DNA of 64,000 nucleotides, taken from sequence record MT129654.1, one strand, 5' to 3'. Shown one piece after another: positions 4,123 through 53,622 of this stretch; positions within the stretch are counted from its first letter, which is position 1; every line of letters starts with the position of its first letter. Origin of the DNA: Escherichia phage MN04. The notes below the pieces were generated by a model that was given only the letters and a program-made list of their open reading frames with translations, had not been told where the DNA came from and searched no databases. The position numbers were made by a program, and so were the translations under genes.

Positions 4123-5091
4123 ATGTACAATATTAAATGTCTATCCGAATCTGAACAGGTTGAAATCGTTAAGTTATATATTTCTGGTAATTATACCCAA
4201 CAAGAACTAGCCGACTGGTATAGTGTATCAGTTGATACAATCCGCAGAGTTTTGAATAACCATAAAGAAGCAGGACAAGCACAAGTGGTTATTACCGGAA
4301 ATATTACGGTAACGGTTCCTAACGAGCCTCGTGTAGTTCCGGTTGAAGTTACTATTGGTGGCTCTCGTCCGGAAATTATCTGGAACGCCAGTTCTAAATT
4401 CGTATCCATCACTGAAGGTCGTACAGTATGGAATACTACTAATAAGAACAAACACTTTGATGCCATCGTACAGGCCCTTAAAGAATCCCGTTTTGATGAT
4501 GCGATTAAACTGATTTCCATTAAAGAAGCTGTTAAGGCTTTCGTTAAAGGTAACGTTCGTATTGAAGGTGGACGTCTGGTTTATCAAGGTATCGAATTGC
4601 GTTCAGGGTTGATTGACCGTATTATCACCTCAATGGAAAATGGCGAAGATTTTGAATTCTACCTGCCGTTCCTTGAGAATCTGTTAGAAAACCCAAGCGA
4701 AAAAGCTGTACAGCGTCTGTTCGACTTCCTGGTCGCGAACGATATCAAAATCACTGAAGACGGCCACTTTATCGCATGGAAAGTTGTTAATTCCGATTAC
4801 ACCGACTGCCGTACTGGTACGTTTGATAACTCGCCAGGTAAGCCAGTTAAAATGCCTCGTTCGCGTGTAAATGATGACGACGAAGTAACTTGTTCAAGTG
4901 GTCTGCACGTTTGCTCTCGTAGCTATATTGGTCATTTTGGTAACTCTAACTGTAAAGTAGTTTCATGCAAAGTTAACCCGCGTGATGTTGTTAGTATCCC
5001 AGTTGATTATGGTGATGCTAAAATGCGTGTATGTTATTATGAAGTTCTGGAAGACGTCACTGAACAGTTCGCAAACGAATACAAATACTAA
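4123..5091 (+). CDS. rIIB: rIIB protein
   Basis: 322 aa; N-terminus MYNIKCLSESEQVEIVKLY resembles T4 rIIB; directly follows rIIA. Confidence 0.9.
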   Translation: MYNIKCLSESEQVEIVKLYISGNYTQQELADWYSVSVDTIRRVLNNHKEAGQAQVVITGNITVTVPNEPRVVPVEVTIGGSRPEIIWNASSKFVSITEGRTVWNTTNKNKHFDAIVQALKESRFDDAIKLISIKEAVKAFVKGNVRIEGGRLVYQGIELRSGLIDRIITSMENGEDFEFYLPFLENLLENPSEKAVQRLFDFLVANDIKITEDGHFIAWKVVNSDYTDCRTGTFDNSPGKPVKMPRSRVNDDDEVTCSSGLHVCSRSYIGHFGNSNCKVVSCKVNPRDVVSIPVDYGDAKMRVCYYEVLEDVTEQFANEYKY

Positions 5092-5129
5092 ATCAATAAA
5101 CGGAGGCTCCGGCCTCCTAAGAGGAAATT

Positions 5130-5327
5130 ATGTTAGATTACCAAGCACGTGTAATTGATGAATATGCCCAACTGGTCTTGAAAATTAATGCACTTGAAGA
5201 GTTTATTAAAGGCGTCGTTTTTGAAACTCTTGATATCCGTCAACAAGGGTTACTGATTGCACAACTGGATGCAATGGGTGCATATGCTCATTGTTTAGAG
5301 GTTCGTATTTCTTATTTCGGTGAGTAA
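5130..5327 (+). CDS. hypothetical protein (65 aa)
   Basis: ATG 8 nt after GAGGAAA SD; preceded by GGAGGC hairpin. Confidence 0.35.
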   Translation: MLDYQARVIDEYAQLVLKINALEEFIKGVVFETLDIRQQGLLIAQLDAMGAYAHCLEVRISYFGE

Positions 5328-5328
5328 A

Positions 5329-5646
5329 ATGATTAATTTCATGAACGTCGGCGACGAAGATATCAAAGATAGTTATCTCCAAGGTAATCATGTGGCCGAT
5401 AAGGTTTATTGTGTGGATGTAATCAAATCTGATAAAGCTACAGGCCATCTTTTTGCAACAGATGTGATTTTCGATTCAGTTGAAAACCTTAAAAAATTAG
5501 ACCACAGTAAATTGAGTGAAAACTCTCGTATCTATTTTGGTAATGTTCACGTCGAAGAATTGTATATTGGTGGTGATTATGAATCCGTCAAATCCGGGAC
5601 TAGTTCGACTGTCGAAGATGCCGACATTTACCCTGAAGACATCTGA
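5329..5646 (+). CDS. hypothetical protein (105 aa)
   Basis: Track ORF starts at GTG 5320; first ATG at 5329 used. Confidence 0.35.
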   Translation: MINFMNVGDEDIKDSYLQGNHVADKVYCVDVIKSDKATGHLFATDVIFDSVENLKKLDHSKLSENSRIYFGNVHVEELYIGGDYESVKSGTSSTVEDADIYPEDI

Positions 5647-5659
5647 TTTAACGGGTGAA

Positions 5660-6136
5660 ATGAAGGTCAAGATTAAGGATACCGTATTGTATTCCTTAAG
5701 CCAGGACCCATCCCAAGATAAGAAAGAAGTATTGACTCGGTGTGTTATTGCAACGTATGCAGAGTACATGGTGGCTGATTGGTTGAAAGGATATGTCAAC
5801 AGTGGTCTGGAAGACCATGACGACCCTTATACCTACGCCTGGGACGTTTTAGCCCATCCTATGTACTGTGGACTACGTGTAGAGGTCAAGACCCACCAAT
5901 CTGATTCTAAGTGGATTTCCTGCACTACAGGATACTCAGGTGACTTCCCTTATGGAACAGGGATAAACCTAGGACCGCTCTTGAATCATAAAGTTGCAGA
6001 CTGTATAATTATATTCGACACTTCAGTAAATGAGGCAGGCGACGTCCTGTTCACTCCTAAGTTCTCTGGTGACAGAGAATCCATCAAAAAGCTAGTCCGT
6101 AAGAGTAATTACAACGGCTGGTATCTCGCCTTATAA
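5660..6136 (+). CDS. hypothetical protein (158 aa); occupies the T4 denB position but no nuclease motif verified
   Basis: First ATG in track ORF 5516..6136 with GGGTGA SD; positional inference only. Confidence 0.3.
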   Translation: MKVKIKDTVLYSLSQDPSQDKKEVLTRCVIATYAEYMVADWLKGYVNSGLEDHDDPYTYAWDVLAHPMYCGLRVEVKTHQSDSKWISCTTGYSGDFPYGTGINLGPLLNHKVADCIIIFDTSVNEAGDVLFTPKFSGDRESIKKLVRKSNYNGWYLAL

Positions 6137-6150
6137 TTTTAAAAATAAGT

Positions 6151-6180
6151 GTTTACATACACCATGGATGGTGTTACTAT
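6151..6180 (+). promoter_or_regulatory. early promoter cassette (GTTTAC, TACTAT-like -10, palindrome ACACCATGGATGGTGT in spacer)
   Basis: sigma70-like spacing; shared downstream core CCTATCAACTA. Confidence 0.5.
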
Positions 6181-6211
6181 CTTCCTATCAACTACATGAG
6201 AGGAAAACAAA

Positions 6212-6472
6212 ATGGATATCAAATTATATTACGCTAAACACAAAGTTACGGGTAAAGTTGTTGCCGCAATGTACGATGCATCAGGTGAAGATGTTATTAC
6301 GGAATTATCCCTTTCTAATTGTAGATTTCTTCGTCCTTTGATAGCGTCAAAAAAAGATTTACAAAAACTTATCGACGGTAAATTAGATAATGTCGATGAT
6401 ATAGATATCCATTATGAACTCCGCCATGCACTGAATGATGGGTTTATGGAAATAAAAGAGCTAGTATTATGA
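6212..6472 (+). CDS. hypothetical early protein (86 aa)
   Basis: ATG after GAGAGGAAAA SD, downstream of early promoter at 6151. Confidence 0.4.
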   Translation: MDIKLYYAKHKVTGKVVAAMYDASGEDVITELSLSNCRFLRPLIASKKDLQKLIDGKLDNVDDIDIHYELRHALNDGFMEIKELVL

Positions 6473-6562
6473 GTAGCAAAATGTGGTGCCTTATTTGGAT
6501 AGCCTGTATCCCAGTGATTTGCGTATGTTTTAGTTTATTGTTGTGGAAATTGGCATAAATCA

Positions 6563-6614
6563 GTATACATCTCCATTAGACATGATATTATAGACCTATC
6601 AACTAATGGAGATG
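6563..6614 (+). promoter_or_regulatory. early promoter cassette with long-range inverted repeat covering the SD
   Basis: GTATAC, 17 nt, TATTAT; arms CATCTCCATTAG 6568-6579 and CTAATGGAGATG 6603-6614. Confidence 0.5.
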
Positions 6615-6617
6615 ATT

Positions 6618-6728
6618 ATGAAAAACTTACTTAAAGCAATTTGGAACATGTTTGTGTTATTGGTTGTATTGAGCATTTTCCCAATAGTTTTTATGATTGA
6701 CCATGTACGTGTATTCTTTAACTTCTGA
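6618..6728 (+). CDS. hypothetical small membrane peptide (36 aa)
   Basis: ATG after GGAG SD; hydrophobic core FVLLVVLSIFPIVFMI; below track cutoff. Confidence 0.25.
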   Translation: MKNLLKAIWNMFVLLVVLSIFPIVFMIDHVRVFFNF

Positions 6729-6738
6729 GGAAAATATT

Positions 6739-6885
6739 ATGGGTAATCGAATTTATAAAGTAAAGTTGCATGGTAAAGTGATTACTACCGTTAGTTTTAA
6801 TTTTTATATCAGCGCTGACTGCGCCCGCGATATCCTCATCGAGGAAGGATATAGCGAATACATCCAAATTGAAGAAGTTCTTTAA
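6739..6885 (+). CDS. hypothetical protein (48 aa)
   Basis: ATG preceded by TGAGGAAAATATT cassette; track start 6697 is non-ATG. Confidence 0.3.
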   Translation: MGNRIYKVKLHGKVITTVSFNFYISADCARDILIEEGYSEYIQIEEVL

Positions 6886-6901
6886 TTCTGAGGAAAATAT
6901 T

Positions 6902-7126
6902 ATGAAACTTTTTAAAGATATCGCAGTTGGTGAAAAATTTGTCTTAGGTAATGGTCAACAATTGATTCGCATTTCTCCTTTAATGGATAATAGTGAGCGG
7001 CCCATTCGTACTGAAAACTGTTTGGATTATCCTTTTTATCAAAAGCGTTTTGCTATTGAAAATAATACCGAGTGTTTCACGGTTGATGAACTGATGGAAT
7101 TATCAGAAGAAGTCGACTCTGAATAA
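6902..7126 (+). CDS. hypothetical protein (74 aa)
   Basis: ATG preceded by TGAGGAAAATATT cassette; track start 6869 is TTG. Confidence 0.3.
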   Translation: MKLFKDIAVGEKFVLGNGQQLIRISPLMDNSERPIRTENCLDYPFYQKRFAIENNTECFTVDELMELSEEVDSE

Positions 7127-7140
7127 TTGAGGAAAATATT

Positions 7141-7485
7141 ATGTCTAAAGTATTTTTTGGTAATTCTAAAGTTATGTTCTTTGAGCAACTCAGTCTTAAA
7201 GAGGCATTGGCAGCCTTCAATCAAGAACTGGTTACTGGGTTAGATTCAAAAACTATGGCAAGTGCGGATTTCGTTTTCGTTCAAGACCCGGATACAGGGT
7301 TTTATCGATTCATCAAATTCCGTATGAGCATGGACCCTGACTATCGTAGTGCTTACTATGTGAGTTACGAAAATGTTATCGAAGAATTACGTGATACCTA
7401 TGGACGTGCTTTGAACCCACTGAATAAGGTTTATAATGCGTCCTTTTATACGAGCGGATTTATTTTAGAACAGCTACAAAAATAG
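7141..7485 (+). CDS. hypothetical protein (114 aa)
   Basis: ATG preceded by TGAGGAAAATATT cassette. Confidence 0.4.
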   Translation: MSKVFFGNSKVMFFEQLSLKEALAAFNQELVTGLDSKTMASADFVFVQDPDTGFYRFIKFRMSMDPDYRSAYYVSYENVIEELRDTYGRALNPLNKVYNASFYTSGFILEQLQK

Positions 7486-7513
7486 TTTACAACCTCGAGA
7501 ATCATGTTATAAT
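7485..7513 (+). promoter_or_regulatory. early promoter of ndd (GTTTAC, 17 nt, TATAAT)
   Basis: Perfect consensus hexamers; CGAGAA/TTCTCG inverted repeat flanks the -10. Confidence 0.6.
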
Positions 7514-7562
7514 GGTTCTCGTTGACTGGATAACAAAACATTAATCTACTGAGGAAATTGAT

Positions 7563-8012
7563 ATGAATACTTATATGACTCGCGGTAACGTTCTGTCTGC
7601 TGGTGCTACTACTGTTGCTTATGTTAAGAATGGCGAATACCAAAATGGTAAGCCTTCTAAAGAAATCTCAGCCCAGCCAGGCTTCTACTTCTTTGTTAAA
7701 GGTGAAGCAGATTCTCGTGTCGTAGCCGCTCGCTTTTATGTCGGCAACCAACGTTCAGCTCAAGGTCTTGATGGTATTGTGGCTAACATTCGTAAGAAAC
7801 GTTCGCAATCAGCTCGTACTATGGCTGTGAATGGTGTAGTGTATGAAGTTCTTTATGTACCTGCTTCTAAAATGAAACCACTGACTACAGGTTTTGGTAA
7901 GGGTCAAATTGCAATGGCTTTCACTCGCAACCATAGTTCCGACCTTCAGACCCTGGAAGAAATGAACCGCATGTTGGCTGATAACTTTAAATTCGTTCTG
8001 CAGGCTTACTAA
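7563..8012 (+). CDS. ndd: nucleoid disruption protein Ndd
   Basis: 149 aa; C-terminus [18 protein letters not shown]...[20 protein letters not shown] matches recalled T4 Ndd; TATAAT early promoter upstream. Confidence 0.85.
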
Positions 8013-46065: not shown

Positions 46066-46329
46066 ATGTTTGTTGTTCATACTATTACTGATGGAATCCC
46101 TAAATCCCATGATTATGGAAACTTTAGACAATTCCTTCGATTGAATCCTGTATATTTCCAAGCCAAAGATGAAGATATCTTTATCCAATGTGTTCGGCGT
46201 GGATTTATGTATGTTACTGAATATGATATTAAAGATAAGCGTATTATATCGTATCACAAAACTTTAAATGAGCTTTTAGATGAAGTAGCTTATAATAGAA
46301 GTACACAAACTGTAAGGACGGTAAAATGA
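46066..46329 (+). CDS. hypothetical protein (87 aa)
   Basis: First ATG of track ORF 46033. Confidence 0.35.
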   Translation: MFVVHTITDGIPKSHDYGNFRQFLRLNPVYFQAKDEDIFIQCVRRGFMYVTEYDIKDKRIISYHKTLNELLDEVAYNRSTQTVRTVK

Positions 46330-47849
46330 TTTTAGATATTTTAAACGAAATTGCTTCTATTGATTCTACTAAAGCTAAAGAAGCTATTATTGCTCGTGAA
46401 AAGGATAACGAGCTTCTGAAACGTGTATATCGTATGGCTTATACCCGTCGTTTGAACTATGGTATTAAAAAGTGGCCAGAACCTGGATTTACGTCTCAAT
46501 CCTTTGGTATGATTACACTTGAAGACCTTCTTGATTTCGCTGAGTTCACATTAGCCACCCGTAAGATTACGGGTAATGCTGCTATTGAAGAGCTTGCTCA
46601 AATTATTGCTGATGCTAAGGGTCCTGACGCTGAGGTATTACGTCGCGTAATGATGCGTGACCTTGAATGTGGTGCATCGATTTCTATTGCTAACAAGGTT
46701 TGGAAAGGTTTAATCCCTGAACAACCTCAAATGTTGGCTAGTTCTTATGATGAAGATTTGATTAAGAAAAATATTAAATGGCCTGCGTTCGCCCAATTAA
46801 AAGCTGACGGCGCCCGTTGTTTTGCTGAAGTTCGTAACGATGGCGTAACATTCCTTACTCGTGGTGGTAATGAATACCAAGGGCTTAATCTTTTGGCGGC
46901 TGAATTAATGGCCATGACCGAAGAAGCTCGACAGCGCCATCCTAATGGTGTTATGATTGATGGCGAATTAGTTTACCACACTCCTAAAGTAGAACCTAAA
47001 GCATCTAATGATTTGTTTAGTATGTTTGATGAGGAACTTCCTGAATTAAGTAAAGCCAAGGAATTCCAAACCGTAGCCGATCGTTCTACTTCAAACGGGT
47101 TGGCTAACAAGGCTCTTCAAGGAACTATTACTCCAACCGAAGCAGCAGGTATGGTGTTACAGGCGTGGGATTATGTCCCATTGGATGTCGTATATTCCGA
47201 AGGTAAAATTAAAGGCGATAAGTATGATGTACGCTTTGCAGCCTTAGAACTTATGGTTGCTCATAATGTCGTATTGCATGGTACAACGCGTGTTGAAGCT
47301 ATCGAAAACCAATGGGTTAATAATCTTGACGAAGCTAAAGTCGTTTATAAGAAATATGTCGACCAAGGCCTGGAAGGTATTATCCTTAAGAACATGGACT
47401 CCTACTGGGAAAACCGCCGTTCTAAGAATCTTATCAAGTTCAAAGAAGTAATCGATATCGCTTTAGAAGTGGTAGGTTATTATGAACACTCGAAGGACCC
47501 AAACAAACTTGGTGGTGTCGAGCTAGTATCACGGTGTCGTCGAATTACATCTGACTGTGGTTCAGGCTTTAAAGATACTACCCATAAGAAAGATAAATCA
47601 GGTAAAAAGGTATTGATTCCATTAGAAGACCGTCCTGATTTAGACCGTGAACTTCTTATGAAACAAGCCCGTGAAGGTAAATTGATTGGACGTATTGCTG
47701 ACTGTGAATGTAATGGTTGGGTTCATTCTAAAGGACGTACTGATACTGTAGGTATTTTCCTTCCAATTATTAAAGGTTGGCGTTTCGATAAAACAGAAGC
47801 TGATACATTTGAAGATGTATTTGGTGATTGGTCTCAAACTGGACTATAA
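46326..47849 (+). CDS. 30: ATP-dependent DNA ligase
   Basis: 507 aa; MILDILNEIASIDSTKAKEAII start; adenylation motif AQLKADGARC; EGIILKN; matches T4 ligase. Confidence 0.9.
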   Translation: MILDILNEIASIDSTKAKEAIIAREKDNELLKRVYRMAYTRRLNYGIKKWPEPGFTSQSFGMITLEDLLDFAEFTLATRKITGNAAIEELAQIIADAKGPDAEVLRRVMMRDLECGASISIANKVWKGLIPEQPQMLASSYDEDLIKKNIKWPAFAQLKADGARCFAEVRNDGVTFLTRGGNEYQGLNLLAAELMAMTEEARQRHPNGVMIDGELVYHTPKVEPKASNDLFSMFDEELPELSKAKEFQTVADRSTSNGLANKALQGTITPTEAAGMVLQAWDYVPLDVVYSEGKIKGDKYDVRFAALELMVAHNVVLHGTTRVEAIENQWVNNLDEAKVVYKKYVDQGLEGIILKNMDSYWENRRSKNLIKFKEVIDIALEVVGYYEHSKDPNKLGGVELVSRCRRITSDCGSGFKDTTHKKDKSGKKVLIPLEDRPDLDRELLMKQAREGKLIGRIADCECNGWVHSKGRTDTVGIFLPIIKGWRFDKTEADTFEDVFGDWSQTGL

Positions 47850-47850
47850 T

Positions 47851-48021
47851 ATGAAAGCTTATTTAGAAACAATTGTTGTAACAAACGCAAATAACACTGC
47901 GGCCTCTCAAATCATCCTAGAGTTTGAGGATGAAATAGCTTTTGCCGATTTTAAAGACGTGTTTGACGGCTATGAAAAAGGCCCGACATTCGAAGTATAT
48001 CGTACGTTGCTACCACTTTAA
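47851..48021 (+). CDS. hypothetical protein (56 aa)
   Basis: First ATG after ligase stop; followed by hairpin terminator. Confidence 0.3.
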   Translation: MKAYLETIVVTNANNTAASQIILEFEDEIAFADFKDVFDGYEKGPTFEVYRTLLPL

Positions 48022-48039
48022 GGCCTTCGGGCCTTTTAT
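48021..48039 (+). terminator. terminator-like hairpin after ligase operon
   Basis: AGGCC-TTCG-GGCCT + TTTTA. Confidence 0.45.
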
Positions 48040-48041
48040 GG

Positions 48042-48049
48042 CATAAATA
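48042..48049 (+). promoter_or_regulatory. possible late promoter variant (CATAAATA) upstream of alt
   Basis: 7/8 match to TATAAATA, 23 nt before Alt start. Confidence 0.3.
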
Positions 48050-48071
48050 CGGTTATTAAAGAGGAATTATT

Positions 48072-50159
48072 ATGACCGAACAATTAAATGAAGTGTTTGA
48101 GTCCGAAGGCACCCTGCCTACTGTAAACTTAAACCCAAAACTTAAAGTACCCCAGATTTGGAAGATTGGCGACGCCGAATCCCAATTAGTTGCTCGTATG
48201 GTATCTTATGCCTCTGAAGGCGATGCTATTAAACAGGTTAAATTAGGTGATAAATATGCCCACGTTATTTTGATGAGTTTATCAGCTAAAGGTACTCCAG
48301 CCGAACTTAAAGGTGGATTAGGCCCTACTCCTATTGATGCTATTAATACCATTTTCGACGTAGTATTCGAACAAGTTAAAAAGCTTCGTATGGATGCTGT
48401 GATGTTCCGTTTTCCAACCAAGAAAATGAAAGGACAAGGACCTATTGTCCAACGGATTATCCAACGTTTGGTAGCACAGAAAACCGGTGGACGTTTTAAA
48501 GTAGTTCCAGCCATGTACCAATTTACCGGTAAACATACTTATATCCTAGTAGTTCGTAAACAAGCTGATATCGAAGATATCAAAGGTATGCCTGGAATTA
48601 ATGCCGAATTATATACTAAGGTAGATTCTGATGTTGGTGAAGTTTATATTTCTAAAAAAGAAGGCGCTCAGGTTACTAAAGAAACCGCTATTGCCGGCAG
48701 TATTGCTAAAGTTGAAGAACGTCGCACTGATAAAATGGTTATAACCAAGACTAAGATTTCTCGTCGTGCGATTGCGGCAAGCCAGTCATTAGAAGCAGAC
48801 CGTAATGAAGGTGAATTATTTCAGAAATATGAACAAACTGCCAATGAGTTCAGTGCGCCTGCTACGGCGGAATTAATTCCACAAGCAGCCGAAGTTGAAT
48901 TATCATTATCATCCGAAACAGCTAAGGATAAGCTGGCTACGGCTATTGATTTTAAAATTTATAATACTATGGATGATTCATTTAAATTTGCGGATGAAGT
49001 TTCTTACGGTGATAAAATTAACTCTTCTTTAGAAAAATTTGTCAAAAAAATTAAAAATGAAAAAACCACGTCAGTTAAAGCTTTAGCCGCCTTTGTTGAA
49101 GCTGCTAATGAAATCGCAGAATCTATTAAAAGTGATTGGTTTGAAGATTATAGAAAAGACAATTTCCATTTGGAAAAAGAGATATTGAATGAAAACAGTG
49201 AAAGAGTATGGAAACAACGTAAGTCTTCATTCTTGTCTAAGATAATGTATACATACGCTATAGAATCAACTAGAGAAATTCTTAATATAACAACATCTCG
49301 AGACCCTAAACAATATACACTTGCAGAAAAACGAGCTATCAGAGAATACGCCTCTTCAGCTTATATTGATATTAACAATGTCCTTCTTGGCCGTTATAAA
49401 CCGGGCTTTTATGAAGTTTTGGACGAAAGCGAAGTTAAACGTGCTATTGATGGAATGGATTCTGCCTTTAAAAATGGTGACCGTTTACCTGAAGGAATAA
49501 TGGTTTATAGAGCACAATCTTTGCGCGCGCCTATCTACGAAGCATTAGTTAAAAATAAGGTATTCTATTTTAGAAACTATGTTTCAACCTCATTGGCTCC
49601 AATCATTTTTGGTGGCTTTAAAGAGAATGCGGCTATTGGTCTTGCTTCCGATGATGTTCGAAAAGAATTAAACATTGATAATAATGACGAAGGCGTTACC
49701 ATCTCTGCTAGTCAAGTGCGTACACATATGTATGCGCCGGATCAAATCCGTGTTGATGTTGGCTGGGCTATTAGTGGCGCTCATAAGGTTAACGTGATTT
49801 ATCCTGGCCAATTAAGCATGCATGCCAACGAAAAGGAAATAATTTTACCACGCGGGCTACTTGTAAAAATAGATAAAATCGTGGATGCATCAGCCAATAC
49901 TGGTTCTGGGGCGGTTTCTAACAATAAATTTATTCAAGCTGAAGTTATGACATCAGATGAGCTTCAAGAATCTGTAGTGTATGATGGTGACGTACTAATG
50001 GAAACCGGTGAGTTGGTCGTATACCAAGATGACTTCGATACTTCCGAAAGCCCTGTATCTTTTGATTCATTTGTTAAATCTACACGGTTTGACGTACTGC
50101 CTCTTTTGGCTTCATGCATAGACCTCTATGGCATACCAGAAAAATTCATCCAAGGGTAA
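48072..50159 (+). CDS. alt: Alt-like ADP-ribosyltransferase, copy 1
   Basis: 695 aa; locus between gene 30 and gene 54 as T4 alt; C-terminal R/S-x-S/E-x-E signature: VYRAQSL, YVSTSL, EKEIILPRG. Confidence 0.75.
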   Translation: MTEQLNEVFESEGTLPTVNLNPKLKVPQIWKIGDAESQLVARMVSYASEGDAIKQVKLGDKYAHVILMSLSAKGTPAELKGGLGPTPIDAINTIFDVVFEQVKKLRMDAVMFRFPTKKMKGQGPIVQRIIQRLVAQKTGGRFKVVPAMYQFTGKHTYILVVRKQADIEDIKGMPGINAELYTKVDSDVGEVYISKKEGAQVTKETAIAGSIAKVEERRTDKMVITKTKISRRAIAASQSLEADRNEGELFQKYEQTANEFSAPATAELIPQAAEVELSLSSETAKDKLATAIDFKIYNTMDDSFKFADEVSYGDKINSSLEKFVKKIKNEKTTSVKALAAFVEAANEIAESIKSDWFEDYRKDNFHLEKEILNENSERVWKQRKSSFLSKIMYTYAIESTREILNITTSRDPKQYTLAEKRAIREYASSAYIDINNVLLGRYKPGFYEVLDESEVKRAIDGMDSAFKNGDRLPEGIMVYRAQSLRAPIYEALVKNKVFYFRNYVSTSLAPIIFGGFKENAAIGLASDDVRKELNIDNNDEGVTISASQVRTHMYAPDQIRVDVGWAISGAHKVNVIYPGQLSMHANEKEIILPRGLLVKIDKIVDASANTGSGAVSNNKFIQAEVMTSDELQESVVYDGDVLMETGELVVYQDDFDTSESPVSFDSFVKSTRFDVLPLLASCIDLYGIPEKFIQG

Positions 50160-50162
50160 ATA

Positions 50163-52286
50163 ATGGAAAATTTAAACGAAGTTTTTGATAGTGATTCCGC
50201 TAAAAACTATCCAGTAACAAATCTTAAGCCGGGCTCCGGTATCCCACAGATTTTCTCTATCCAAGCACCAGGTAACGATAACCTGGTTGCTCGTATGGTA
50301 TCTTATGCGTCTCAAGGAGACGCTATTAAAATGGTTAAGCCAGGCGACAAATATGTCCATGTTATTTTAATGAGTTTGTCGAGCAAGGGTGCTCCAGCCG
50401 AACTCAAAGGTGGTCTTGGTTCCGACCCACTTGGTGCATTGAATACTATTTTTGATACGATATACGAACAAGTAAATAAACTTAAAATGGATGCGGTTTT
50501 GTTCCGTTTCCCTACCAAGAAAATGAAAGGTAAGGGCCCTACTGTTCAGCGTGTATTAGCTCGTTTGGCGATGGCACGTACCGGTGGTAAGTTTAAAGTT
50601 GTCGATGATATGTTCCAGTTTAGTGGTAAACATACATACGTTCTTTTAGCACGTCGTGGCACTAATATCGAAGATATCAAGGGTATGCCTGAAATTGATG
50701 CGGACCTTTATACCAAGGTTGAGTCTAAAGTCGGTGAAGTTTATGTTTCTAAGAAAACCGGCCAGGCCGTAAGTAAGGTCGAAGCCGTAGCGGCATCTAT
50801 TGCACAGGTTGAAGAGAAACGTACCGATAAGGCTGTTATCTCTCGTACTAAAATTTCCCGTCGTATGGCTGCAGCAGCGCAGTATTCTACTGCCGAACCT
50901 GAAACTTTATCACCTAAAGAATTGCAGGTTTATAACGAGTTTGAAGCTTCTGTCCCTGTTCACTCGGCCGAAGGCCCTGAGAACGAAGGTATTGAGCAGA
51001 TTAGTCAGAACTTTAAAAAAGGTGCTATTACTAAAATGCGTCAGGCCTCTCAGTTTAAATCTAAGAGTGAGGACCTTGCCAACTTTAGATACACCATTGC
51101 TCTCACGCACGCTTTAATGACTGATAGTAAATTTAAACTAAATTATGCTAATAGAGATAAACAAGGGTTTGAAATTTACTCTAATAATATGGCATTTTTT
51201 AATACGGAAGTCGATAGACTTTTAAGTGGCCTTTCTCAAATCAATACTACCAATAGTCTGGATATTATTAAGAGAATTGTTAATAACCTGAGTGCCCGTT
51301 TTCAGGGGTCTCCTTCAGAGAAAGCATCCCGAATTGCTTTCGCTATGGAAGCCGTTTATAAACTGATTAACGATTCTATTAGCGATGCATATGCTTATTC
51401 AGGCGAGCTCATTAAACCTAAGGGCTTGACCAAAGACGAAAGTAATGCCATTATTGAATATTGTGCGGCTGAATATGCTCCTATGAACTTATTCCTTTTA
51501 GGTAAACCTGAATCCGAAAACAATACAACAGCTATTAAATTGATTAAGGATTTAGACTCAGCATTTACCAAGGGTATTAAACTTCCTAAGGGTACTATTT
51601 TGTATCGTGGTCAGGATTTACCATACAAAATTCTGCGCCATAATATTGATAACAAAACATTTTACTTTAAGAACTTTGTGTCCGCTTCATTAAAGCCTAA
51701 TATCTTTGGCGAATTTGGTAAAAATTATATGGCCCTCGACAACCAAGCAGTTTTTGTTGGCGATGAAGGTTCTTTATCCTCCGCTGATGAGTTGTTTAAA
51801 TTAGCCAGTGGTAGTTCATCTGATGTAGGCGAAGTTGATGATGAAGAGGTAGAATGGGAAGAAGACGAGTTCGGTAATCCAATTGCACCTGAAGGCCCTG
51901 CAGACAGGATTGCTGAAATCGGTATGGTTATTCGAGGTGCTGAAGCAGTTAAAGTTATCGCTCCTGGTGACCTTACAGAATATTCCGAAGAAGCAGAAAT
52001 TATCCTTCCGCGAGGATTATTGTTGAAGGTTGATAAAGTAGCGGCTTTTGCTATGAATGATAGAGTATCTCACAAATACCTTATGGAAGCTACAGTGACA
52101 TCTCCTTCAGAACTCAGTGGGTCCGTTTACGATGGTGACCATCTGATGGAAACCGGTGAAGTTAAATTGATGAATGGGTTTAAAGAATTCCTAGTTTCAG
52201 AATCTGTTTCAGAAAGTAATGAGGCTATGGAAATCCTTGCTGCATCTTTGGACATCTCTTCTTTACCAAATAAATTCAAAATGTAG
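50163..52286 (+). CDS. Alt-like ADP-ribosyltransferase, copy 2 (divergent paralog)
   Basis: 707 aa; N-terminal region clearly homologous to copy 1; ART signature LYRGQDL, FVSASL, EAEIILPRG; central region unrelated. Confidence 0.7.
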   Translation: MENLNEVFDSDSAKNYPVTNLKPGSGIPQIFSIQAPGNDNLVARMVSYASQGDAIKMVKPGDKYVHVILMSLSSKGAPAELKGGLGSDPLGALNTIFDTIYEQVNKLKMDAVLFRFPTKKMKGKGPTVQRVLARLAMARTGGKFKVVDDMFQFSGKHTYVLLARRGTNIEDIKGMPEIDADLYTKVESKVGEVYVSKKTGQAVSKVEAVAASIAQVEEKRTDKAVISRTKISRRMAAAAQYSTAEPETLSPKELQVYNEFEASVPVHSAEGPENEGIEQISQNFKKGAITKMRQASQFKSKSEDLANFRYTIALTHALMTDSKFKLNYANRDKQGFEIYSNNMAFFNTEVDRLLSGLSQINTTNSLDIIKRIVNNLSARFQGSPSEKASRIAFAMEAVYKLINDSISDAYAYSGELIKPKGLTKDESNAIIEYCAAEYAPMNLFLLGKPESENNTTAIKLIKDLDSAFTKGIKLPKGTILYRGQDLPYKILRHNIDNKTFYFKNFVSASLKPNIFGEFGKNYMALDNQAVFVGDEGSLSSADELFKLASGSSSDVGEVDDEEVEWEEDEFGNPIAPEGPADRIAEIGMVIRGAEAVKVIAPGDLTEYSEEAEIILPRGLLLKVDKVAAFAMNDRVSHKYLMEATVTSPSELSGSVYDGDHLMETGEVKLMNGFKEFLVSESVSESNEAMEILAASLDISSLPNKFKM

Positions 52287-52343: not shown

Positions 52344-52634
52344 ATGAAATCTACATTCCGCTTTAACGGTCAAGAACTGGTAGTTGAAAACGTTATCCCT
52401 GCTTCTGAAGAGTTCGACAGTGCAGTCGGTAATGAATTACGTCGAGTTTTCGGCGAAGACAAACAGTTCGACTTACGCCCGGTTGAAAATTTTTCACAAC
52501 CTGAACAAACTGAAAATATCTTTAATGGTGTAGTAACCGGTCAGCTTGAATCTGAAGCTCCTATTTCTATTACGGTCTTTGTTAAAAAGCAGCCATTAAT
52601 GACCGCAGCAGGTTTTATCTCGTTCCGTAAATAA
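52344..52634 (+). CDS. hypothetical protein (96 aa)
   Basis: ATG after GAGGAGAACATT SD; own promoter cassette; terminator follows. Confidence 0.4.
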   Translation: MKSTFRFNGQELVVENVIPASEEFDSAVGNELRRVFGEDKQFDLRPVENFSQPEQTENIFNGVVTGQLESEAPISITVFVKKQPLMTAAGFISFRK

Positions 52635-52668: not shown

Positions 52669-53622
52669 TTATAACAACCTGGATATTCCATTATTAATAG
52701 CACGCCCACCAAATGTATTAACCAATCCGGTCAATCCACTAGAAGCTCCTGAAAGTCGGCTTAATTTAGCTACAGAAGCACTTAATGAGTTACTCTCACT
52801 TATACCTGCTACGCCTTTAAGGACTTTATCTTCCAGCCATTCATAAGCAGCTTGTTTACCAACTGCACCTGTCTGCACACTTCTATAAGCAAATGTAACA
52901 TCAAACGAAGCAATTTGGTTATCACCATCATAGGATAATTCCGGCGATGAAACACTAACAGGAACACATCCATTAAGCATTACCACCGTATGTGGCAATC
53001 CATTACGAGAATGAAGGTTGACTTGGATGTCAGCTTCAACATCTTCAGGCAATGCTCTTAATTGTGTAATAGGGTCTTGGACACTATTGACCCAATCATT
53101 AAAAGCACGGTAGTTGGCAGCTTCAGAATCCATACGGAAGCTTAATACCAATGGGGAATATTCTCTTCCGGTAATTTTGATATTAGGCGAGTTGTGGTTC
53201 AAATCCATTTCATAGTTCAAAGTATTATCCGGAATTTTAACGGCATGGACTAAAAGACCTGCCGTAGGATAAGCCATATTGAAAAAATCCATAAGATAAG
53301 TCCCGACTTCAAACTCACCTAGTAAGCTCTGCACAACCCTGGATGACATAGCTCCAATCAGATATTTACTTATGCCGGACTTACGAATCAACTTCTGAGT
53401 GCCCGCTGTCACTAATGTCGTAACACCTTGGGTTAAATCTCCTTGGGTAATTCCAAACAAATCGGTATTCAACGGGATATTGTTAAATAAAGCTCCACCG
53501 AACTGGTCGAGGAGCGCTTGGGATTTAGAAGAAGGAACTGTAGCAAATACTACACTAAACAGGTTATTCCTTTGTAGGTCAATATTAATTGCCTGGTTTT
53601 GAAATTCTTGTAAAGTATACAT
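52669..53622 (-). CDS. 54: baseplate tail-tube initiator gp54
   Basis: 317 aa; MYTLQEFQNQAINIDLQRNNLFSVVFAT and LVLSFRMDSEAANYRA resemble T4 gp54. Confidence 0.8.
   Translation of the reverse strand: MYTLQEFQNQAINIDLQRNNLFSVVFATVPSSKSQALLDQFGGALFNNIPLNTDLFGITQGDLTQGVTTLVTAGTQKLIRKSGISKYLIGAMSSRVVQSLLGEFEVGTYLMDFFNMAYPTAGLLVHAVKIPDNTLNYEMDLNHNSPNIKITGREYSPLVLSFRMDSEAANYRAFNDWVNSVQDPITQLRALPEDVEADIQVNLHSRNGLPHTVVMLNGCVPVSVSSPELSYDGDNQIASFDVTFAYRSVQTGAVGKQAAYEWLEDKVLKGVAGISESNSLSASVAKLSRLSGASSGLTGLVNTFGGRAINNGISRLL

Follow-up and report, generated by a model that had tools for sequence, protein, structure and literature searches.

We analysed the alt locus of Escherichia phage MN04 in a stretch of 64,000 nucleotides (nt) from sequence record MT129654.1; this whole stretch, at its full length, is called the window below, and the region discussed covers its positions 48,072 to 52,286. 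The plus strand carries there two adjacent open reading frames (ORFs), altA (48072-50159, 695 amino acids, aa) and altB (50163-52286, 707 aa), which are separated by a gap of 3 nt (junction TAA-ATA-ATG). A first-pass annotation, made from the letters alone, had described two neighbouring ORFs of ~700 aa between ligase and gene 54 as tandem, diverged Alt-like ADP-ribosyltransferases (ARTs), and their coordinates and flanks were as it had given them. With a probability of about 0.8, we consider this region to be the alt locus of a JS98-like dhakavirus, with two functional paralogues of the Alt protein of phage T4 that would be injected into the host and are probably differently targeted. The features of the two genes are as follows.

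48072-50159, plus strand: altA (copy 1), 695 aa, Alt-family ADP-ribosyltransferase with a mosigvirus-type cassette (PHROG 802, 1e-257; Pfam PF03496, 1.3e-28)
48072-48092, plus strand: altA N-terminal propeptide MTEQLNE, with the predicted prohead-protease site L-N-E7/V-F (slash, predicted cut), which aligns with ITE-6 of T4
48093-48776, plus strand: altA N-terminal basic alpha/beta domain, aa 8-235, isoelectric point (pI) 9.65; identity 65% to altB, 98% to JS10 altA and 46% to T4
48777-49946, plus strand: altA exchangeable cassette, aa ~236-625, helical middle plus ART core, delimited by DNA breakpoints relative to JS10
49509-49838, plus strand: altA catalytic residues R480 (49509-49511), S505/S507 (49584-49592) and E587/E589 (49830-49838), from motif mapping
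49962-50156, plus strand: altA C-terminal site L-Q-E633 and 62-aa propeptide-like tail, which aligns with LTE-619 of T4
50163-52286, plus strand: altB (copy 2), 707 aa, Alt-family ADP-ribosyltransferase with a cassette of the T6 second-copy type (PHROG 802, 9e-251; Pfam PF03496, 7.4e-18)
50163-50873, plus strand: altB N-terminal propeptide and basic N domain, aa 1-237, pI 9.65
50874-51422, plus strand: altB middle region, predicted helical; 44-45% identity to the T6 alt2 middle
51423-52097, plus strand: altB ART domain, with R482 (51606-51608), S507/S509 (51681-51689) and E610/E612 (51990-51998)
51804-51917, plus strand: altB acidic, low-confidence insertion in the ART domain, aa ~548-585, containing SSSDVGEVDDEEVEWEEDEFGNP; predicted local distance difference test score (pLDDT) <50 at aa 552-564 and 573-577
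52119-52121, plus strand: altB codon 653, GGG, encoding Gly in place of the Glu conserved at the predicted C-terminal processing site; GAG in JS98 and JS10

Both proteins matched PHROG 802 ('Alt-like RNA polymerase ADP-ribosyltransferase'), over residues 1-694 of AltA and 1-707 of AltB, as well as Pfam PF03496 (ADPrib_exo_Tox, ADP-ribosyltransferase exoenzyme). They could be aligned end to end by BLASTP (41 % identity, E 2e-151) and are colinear over their full length with T4 Alt, a head-packaged, injected NAD+:arginine mono-ADP-ribosyltransferase, with which both share the R-S-ExE motif, the N-terminal [L/I]-x-E site, the genomic position and the position of the late-promoter-like box, and AltA also the C-terminal [L/I]-x-E site. 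On these alignments, AltA and AltB are full-length T4 Alt homologues and paralogues of each other. The order of the locus also matches that of the T4 Alt family, with ligase and alt.1 on one side and alt.-3 and gene 54 on the other.

Identity between AltA and AltB is 65 % over the N-terminal ~235 aa, where homology over ~230 aa had been proposed and all the motifs quoted in its support were indeed present, 7-12 % in the middle (aa ~236-415) and 37-38 % in the ART part. The corresponding values against T4 Alt are 42-46 % for the N domain, 12-25 % for the middle and 39-54 % for the ART core. The central regions had been called unrelated, and no homology between them was detected by BLASTP (E > 10) or hhalign (probability 0.35 %); that they are fast-diverged copies still traceable by profile methods was considered and dropped, both programs having drawn a blank.

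The two proteins have the same build, i.e. an N-terminal propeptide ending in [L/I]-x-E, a basic alpha/beta domain of ~230 aa, a helical middle of ~180 aa, an ART domain and a tail of ~55-62 aa. The R / S-x-S / E-x-E signature proposed for both C-termini was mapped in full in copy 1 (VYR480AQSL, YVS505TS507L and E587KE589IILPRG) and in copy 2 (LYR482GQDL, FVS507AS509L and E610AE612IILPRG), and it is conserved across 68 homologues, with the first Ser, both Glu and LPRG invariant and the Arg present in at least 90 %. AlphaFold2 models built on the 68-sequence alignment (mean pLDDT 82 for AltA and 79.6 for AltB) predicted an ART fold for both C-terminal domains, which in these models resemble solved ARTs of the C3/VIP2/iota type. 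The T4 Alt mutant E577A is catalytically dead (PMC11404850), and E577 corresponds, to within one numbering position, to the second Glu of the E-x-E motif. The spacing from S-x-S to E-x-E is 101 aa in AltB, 80 in AltA and 78 in T6 alt2. The acidic insertion of AltB (SSSDVGEVDDEEVEWEEDEFGNP) is missing from T6 alt2 despite the same cassette type and is dhakavirus-specific; it is placed in a stretch of the fold on which substrate choice depends in C3-like toxins.

Outside the basic N domain, the remainder of each protein is acidic, and such a basic domain would fit a protein embedded in packaged DNA. No matches were obtained by phmmer with full-length AltA and AltB against PDB sequences, and the N-domain profile against PDB gave noise only (E ~1). 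Pfam scans were blank for the isolated N domains and gave sub-threshold noise for the middle regions (E 0.06-0.4, far below the curated cut-offs), yielding no family name for either part; PF26846 is assigned to AltA/AltB proteins in database records. An N-domain profile search against 1.84 billion representatives retrieved 70 clusters, in which the domain is always N-terminal and belongs almost exclusively to Alt-like proteins, and its use as a general delivery module on other enzyme classes was rejected as a rule because it occurs almost solely on ART proteins. A few metagenomic proteins combine the Alt N domain with no Pfam-recognisable ART, i.e. P0171 (1142 aa), which has degenerate ART-like motifs and a ~500-aa extension of unknown kind, and P0172 (541 aa), whose C-terminal half was not recognised. 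With an apparently GNAT-like topology and an invariant Gly-rich loop, the conserved N domain may serve for more than packaging.

The 4,215-nt region is 99.3 % identical (31 nt differences) to Escherichia phage JS98 (EF469154 / NC_010105; genus Dhakavirus), AltA being 100 % identical to JS98 alta and AltB differing from JS98 altb by 3 aa. The labels alta and altb of JS98 date from a 2007 deposit and are also used for the corresponding genes of JS10 and IME08. Nolan et al. 2006 reported that 44RR has alt duplicated in full length and also recognised T4 alt.-1/alt.-2 as paralogous alt fragments (PMC1524935), and Jin et al. 2014 reported Alt duplicated in Ac42, JS98 and Bp7 and three Alt-like genes in ZZ1 (PMC4177764). 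The novelty that the first-pass annotation had implied is thus not upheld, the two-copy arrangement being already annotated, noted in print and common. In the searchable literature, we found no biochemical characterisation of any second Alt copy; alt is not mentioned in Petrov 2010, and a literature search for dhakavirus virion proteomics gave nothing relevant.

Copy number across phages was surveyed by tblastn with the C-terminal 285 aa of AltA as query against 50,697 phage records, which yielded 1,221 positive records and 1,802 separate match places. In an evenly spaced sample of 60 positive records, at least two Alt places were present in 29, i.e. about half, so that a two-copy arrangement as the common state, an outcome which the first-pass annotation had listed as refuting, is largely what was observed. 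T6 (NC_054907 gp200/gp201) carries at the same position two full-length tandem alt genes (697 and 685 aa), also with a 3-nt gap. T2 and RB68 have two Alt match places each (match counts only), Bp7 has alt and alt', KIT01 and LHE83 have three alt copies each, moonvirus CF1 has one copy and a split second copy, krischvirus ECD7 has one copy and an ART-only ORF, and mosigviruses have a single copy. The third tandem alt of some dhakaviruses sits between the A and B copies (KIT01 extract 5092-7137; LHE83).

T4 had been taken as the single-copy reference; it does have one intact alt, but keeps beside it the stump of a second one. In the 421 nt past T4 alt (extract 4553-4973), the sequence is 96.6 % identical to the initial 350 nt of T6 alt2 (extract 5598-7658), the reading frame being shifted around codon 56; the alignment then resumes 20 nt short of the T6 alt2 stop. 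This identifies T4 alt.-1/alt.-2 as what is left of a second alt gene of the T6 type after a frameshift and a deletion of ~1.7 kb, so that the single alt of T4 is a derived state.

Using the locus as query, megablast matched 55 phage records, 9 of them with a coverage of at least 80 %. The ratio of non-synonymous to synonymous substitution rates (dN/dS) within each type is 0.03-0.07 in all four regions of both genes; in altB it is 0.03-0.06, with 0 to 3 non-synonymous vs 17 to 28 synonymous changes in the ART domain. Conservation of AltB in JS10 reaches 99 %, and 59 sequences belong to the 90 %-identity cluster of this protein. Both altA and altB are under strong purifying selection, and neither is decaying.

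Thirteen Alt proteins from six phages were compared region by region. The N domain tracks phage genus and slot: among themselves, dhakavirus slot 1 domains are 95-98 % identical and dhakavirus non-first-slot domains 86-99 %, the N domain of AltB showing 86-99 % identity to the non-first-slot domains of KIT01, JS10 and Bp7 across four different cassettes. T4 Alt and T6 alt1 have identical N domains (100 %), and dhakavirus and tequatrovirus domains share 42-46 %. The middle and ART regions fall into the following types, given with their identities.

Type I: window AltA, KIT01 alt1 and mosigvirus Alt (middle 67 %, ART 80 %)
Type II: JS10 AltA, Bp7 alt and T6 alt1 (middle 67 %, ART 94 %)
Type III: T4 Alt and Bp7 alt' (middle 59 %, ART 79 %)
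Type IV: window AltB, JS10 AltB, KIT01 alt3 and T6 alt2 (middle 44 %, ART 58 %)
Type V: KIT01 alt2, partnerless among the 13 proteins and grouped with P0007, a protein of metagenomic origin, when 133 homologues were clustered

Identity of the KIT01 alt2 cassette to the other 12 proteins does not exceed ~22 % for the middle and ~42 % for the ART, and the N domain of KIT01 alt2 is of the non-first-slot type (86-92 % to those copies).

The limits of the cassette could be seen in DNA. Between the window and JS10, identity is 94-100 % up to ~48790, 34-64 % to ~49925 and 90-100 % beyond, with finer altA breakpoints at ~48762-48792 (aa 231-241) and ~49932-49950 (aa 621-626); a like pattern was obtained between T4 alt and T6 alt1. 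At the protein level, window AltA and JS10 AltA are 98 % identical in the N domain, 33-36 % in the middle, 60 % in the ART and 95 % in the tail, and the ART of JS10 AltA is 94 % identical to that of T6 alt1, with N domains at 46 %. Among the 133 homologues, five core clusters are represented behind one N-domain cluster and four behind another, and cores of the T4 type follow three different N clusters. Of the 924 protein pairs whose N domains share at least 90 % identity, 242 have cores that share 50 % or less. The type III cassette occupies slot 1 in T4 and slot 2 in Bp7, and two cassettes of the same type in one genome were found in 0 of six multi-copy loci examined.

From these region identities and breakpoints, the internal middle-plus-ART cassette exists as discrete types common to several genera and exchanged by recombination at conserved junctions, with the N domain and the C-terminal tail following the phage lineage. 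The earlier proposal of a duplication followed by divergence is right in that the copies are paralogues; it is incomplete because they carry old, distinct effector types, closer to those of other genera than to the neighbour copy, and because the effector segment is exchanged horizontally, that of altA being replaced at sharp breakpoints between dhakaviruses of the JS98 and JS10 types. We propose, as a tentative model that falls somewhat short of an even chance, that the alt locus is a multi-slot system in which a lineage-specific head-delivery scaffold, i.e. the basic N-terminal domain and the C-terminal propeptide, would be combined with interchangeable ART cassettes moving across genera and slots. 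The resulting injected ART sets would be combinatorial and non-redundant, their members acting on separate targets in host takeover or immunity (e.g. MazF or Mokosh). No description of a cassette architecture of the alt locus was found in the searchable literature.

Among known systems, T6 shares the two-copy layout, and its alt2 has the same cassette type as altB (middle 44-45 %, ART 57-58 %); it differs by its tequatrovirus-specific N domains (42-46 % against those of dhakaviruses) and by a JS10-type cassette in its first copy. Unlike the window, T4 has one intact alt plus the stump, and a cassette of the T4 type recurs in Bp7, where it occupies the second slot. JS10-type dhakaviruses differ from the window in the altA cassette. 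The T-even internal proteins IPI/IPII/IPIII follow the same logic, with a conserved capsid-targeting sequence and a variable injected body, and these variable bodies are thought to track host defences (PMC3012670, PMC9026906). However, the conserved part of Alt is a 230-aa domain plus a C-terminal propeptide, compared with ~10 residues in the internal proteins, and its variable part stays within one enzyme family, the ARTs. Bacterial polymorphic toxins, including ART toxins (Tre1-like 6drh, Lmo0066 8za7), likewise join a conserved delivery region to an exchangeable C-terminal toxin, and, purely as an analogy, Alt resembles them in having exchangeable catalytic modules attached at conserved junctions, as seen from region identities and breakpoints. 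In Alt, by contrast, the exchanged segment is internal, the C-terminal tail being retained, and delivery occurs by ejection from the phage head instead of a secretion system. No immunity gene follows the cassette, since altB begins 3 nt past the altA stop and the conserved alt.-3 follows altB, and no small ORF varying with cassette type was present in JS10, KIT01, Bp7 or T6.

T4 Alt is trimmed at both ends by the prohead protease gp21. Mass spectrometry placed the N-terminal cut at ITE-6, with a loss of 6 residues, and the C-terminal cut at LTE-619, with a loss of 63 (PMC5694885; reviewed in PMC9026906). The N-terminal site of AltB, MENLNE6/VF, aligns with ITE-6 as that of AltA does; at this site, Glu is found in 132 of the 133 homologues, and so is the next Phe. 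The C-terminal [LIV]-x-E motif is kept in 131/133, and the pLDDT of AltA falls low past aa ~633. As the 3' breakpoint lies few residues upstream of the C-terminal processing site, the exchanged segment would approximately correspond to the effector part of the mature protein.

Three candidate expression signals were identified upstream of altA.

48022-48037, plus strand: terminator-like hairpin GGCC-TTCG-GGCC followed by TTTT, directly 3' of alt.1, read from the sequence, with a putative terminator role
48042-48049, plus strand: late-promoter-like box CATAAATA, 23 nt before the ATG, probably driving transcription of both alt genes
48058-48065, plus strand: Shine-Dalgarno-like AAAGAGGA for altA, read from the sequence

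The box CATAAATA, which had been put forward as a possible late promoter before copy 1, sits where T4 and T6 have the late-promoter consensus TATAAATA, with which it aligns column for column, and it is also found at the corresponding position in Bp7, KIT01 and a mosigvirus. The hairpin core GCCTTCGGGC is invariant in T4, T6, Bp7, KIT01 and a mosigvirus. Because exact TATAAATA boxes occur in the window at chance frequency (9 observed vs 7.1 expected), the promoter call rests on positional conservation and not on motif enrichment. No box comparable to CATAAATA was found before altB, and altA and altB probably form one late operon transcribed from a single promoter, given the 3-nt gap, the single box and the conservation of hairpin and box in T4 and T6. 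In three genera, the hairpin GGCCTTCGGGCC with a late-promoter-like box immediately behind it occurs at the same place before alt, and this combination resembles the composite stem-loop and promoter units of T4-like phages. Such units have reportedly been proposed as mediators of module shuffling in these phages.

By analogy with T4 Alt, altA and altB would be transcribed together late in infection from the CATAAATA box, and their products would enter the prohead core, be trimmed by the prohead protease, be ejected with the DNA and use NAD+ to mono-ADP-ribosylate host arginines at the very start of infection. The phage would in this way inject a repertoire of two effectors, to take over the host and/or to counter its defences. 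In T4, each head contains ~40 copies of Alt, and virions of other T4-like phages have also been found to contain Alt homologues. NAD+-dependent ADP-ribosylation, including that of RNA polymerase alpha at Arg265, is a property of the T4 Alt family, and neither the AltA nor the AltB cassette is of the T4 type; the known targets of T4 Alt cannot be assumed for either protein. Since their middles are unrelated, their ART cores 37-38 % identical and their S-x-S to E-x-E loops different, AltA and AltB most likely modify different sets of host proteins. T4 Alt is required for evasion of Mokosh type I and modifies MazF; on a strain with Mokosh type I, plating is restored by T4 Alt but not by Bas37 Alt (bioRxiv 10.1101/2025.11.20.689424). 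That Bas37 Alt cannot replace T4 Alt in this respect independently supports the view that Alt variants are not interchangeable.

Several points weigh against two injected, functional and differently targeted enzymes. Expression, packaging, activity and targets of AltA and AltB are all carried over from T4 Alt by analogy, and because T4 Alt is promiscuous the two target sets could overlap heavily. The promoter assignment concerns a consensus-like 8-mer whose first base is unlike that of TATAAATA. AltB has S-A-S where S-T-S is usual, which is still S-x-S. It also reads L-S-G653 at its C-terminal site, whereas Glu is found there in 131/133 homologues, JS98 and JS10 AltB included; with Gly in place of this near-universal Glu, maturation of AltB may differ, and the E653G change may block or shift its C-terminal processing. 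E653G corresponds to a single A-to-G difference from JS98, and an L-M-E lies 9 residues downstream.

Of the other explanations, the one that survives best, although we regard it as unlikely on balance, supposes a non-arginine substrate for one or both enzymes (e.g. nucleic acid, with RNAylation as by T4 ModB), or a role mainly in counter-defence against host immune proteins. Both copies contain E-x-E, and it is E-x-E, not Q-x-E, that is the arginine-specific form of the motif in characterised C3/VIP2/iota-type toxins, which would speak against another substrate. R-S-E clade ARTs with other substrates do exist, ModB RNAylation being an example (PMC9503650), and a counter-defence role would accord with the need for T4 Alt against Mokosh type I, with its modification of MazF and with the cross-genus exchange of cassettes, a pattern expected of arms-race effectors.

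A redundant pair, in which both enzymes modify RNA polymerase alpha like T4 Alt and the duplication provides more injected dose or robustness, is improbable. The two proteins do share the catalytic motif, the overall architecture and N domains at 65 % identity, and dose could matter with ~40 copies of T4 Alt per head. Redundant copies would however hardly be expected to have middles with no detected homology and such divergent ART cores, to persist as separate cross-genus lineages (altB with T6 alt2, altA with mosigvirus Alt), to be each under purifying selection and never to form a same-type pair at the six multi-copy loci; the failure of Alt variants to complement each other against Mokosh points in the same direction. 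Very improbable, finally, is that one copy, most likely altB, is decaying or catalytically dead on the way to the T4 alt.-1/alt.-2 state, or a merely structural core component: T4 demonstrates that the second slot can be lost, CF1 and ECD7 have a split copy and an ART-only ORF, and altB itself has E653G and S-A-S, but its 707-codon ORF is intact with all catalytic residues kept, its low dN/dS extends to the ART domain and its conservation in JS10 and in the 59-sequence cluster is high. For altB as a pseudogene in the making, dN/dS and the intact motifs led to rejection.

Two functional, injected and probably differently targeted Alt paralogues are thus the reading we retain, and the finding is mostly ordinary, two alt genes being known in JS98-like phages and multi-copy alt loci being common. 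What the comparison of sequences would add is the cassette model, the derived nature of the T4 single copy and the strain-specific E653G. Alt targets are so far known for the T4 type, to which neither copy of the window belongs, and recent work links T4 Alt to variant-specific evasion of a defence system. If cassette types map to different host targets, alt typing could help to account for host range and counter-defence capacity in therapeutic T4-like phages, or to predict them. The conserved N domain and C-terminal propeptide might also offer a natural scaffold for packaging engineered cargo.

The genes flanking altA and altB are the following.

46326-47849: DNA ligase, first gene of the left flank
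47851-48021, plus strand: alt.1 homologue, a short conserved ORF preceding altA (Pfam PF24647 Phage_blade, 8e-22; PHROG 1976; named alt.1 in JS98)
52344-52634, plus strand: alt.-3 homologue (DUF5498), a conserved downstream neighbour (Pfam PF17602, 4e-34; named alt.-3 in JS98)
52669-53622, minus strand: gp54, after alt.-3, with gp48 also on the minus strand beyond

The same neighbours (ligase, alt.1, alt.-3 and gp54) surround alta and altb in JS98, from which the window differs, among other changes, by altB E653G and an altered upstream ATG. At the altB start (50160-50165), the window reads ATAATGGAA and offers the second ATG only; JS98 (extract 6089-6094) reads ATGATGGAA and is annotated from the first ATG. 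Since only the second ATG is available in the window, the annotated start of JS98 altb is probably one codon too early.

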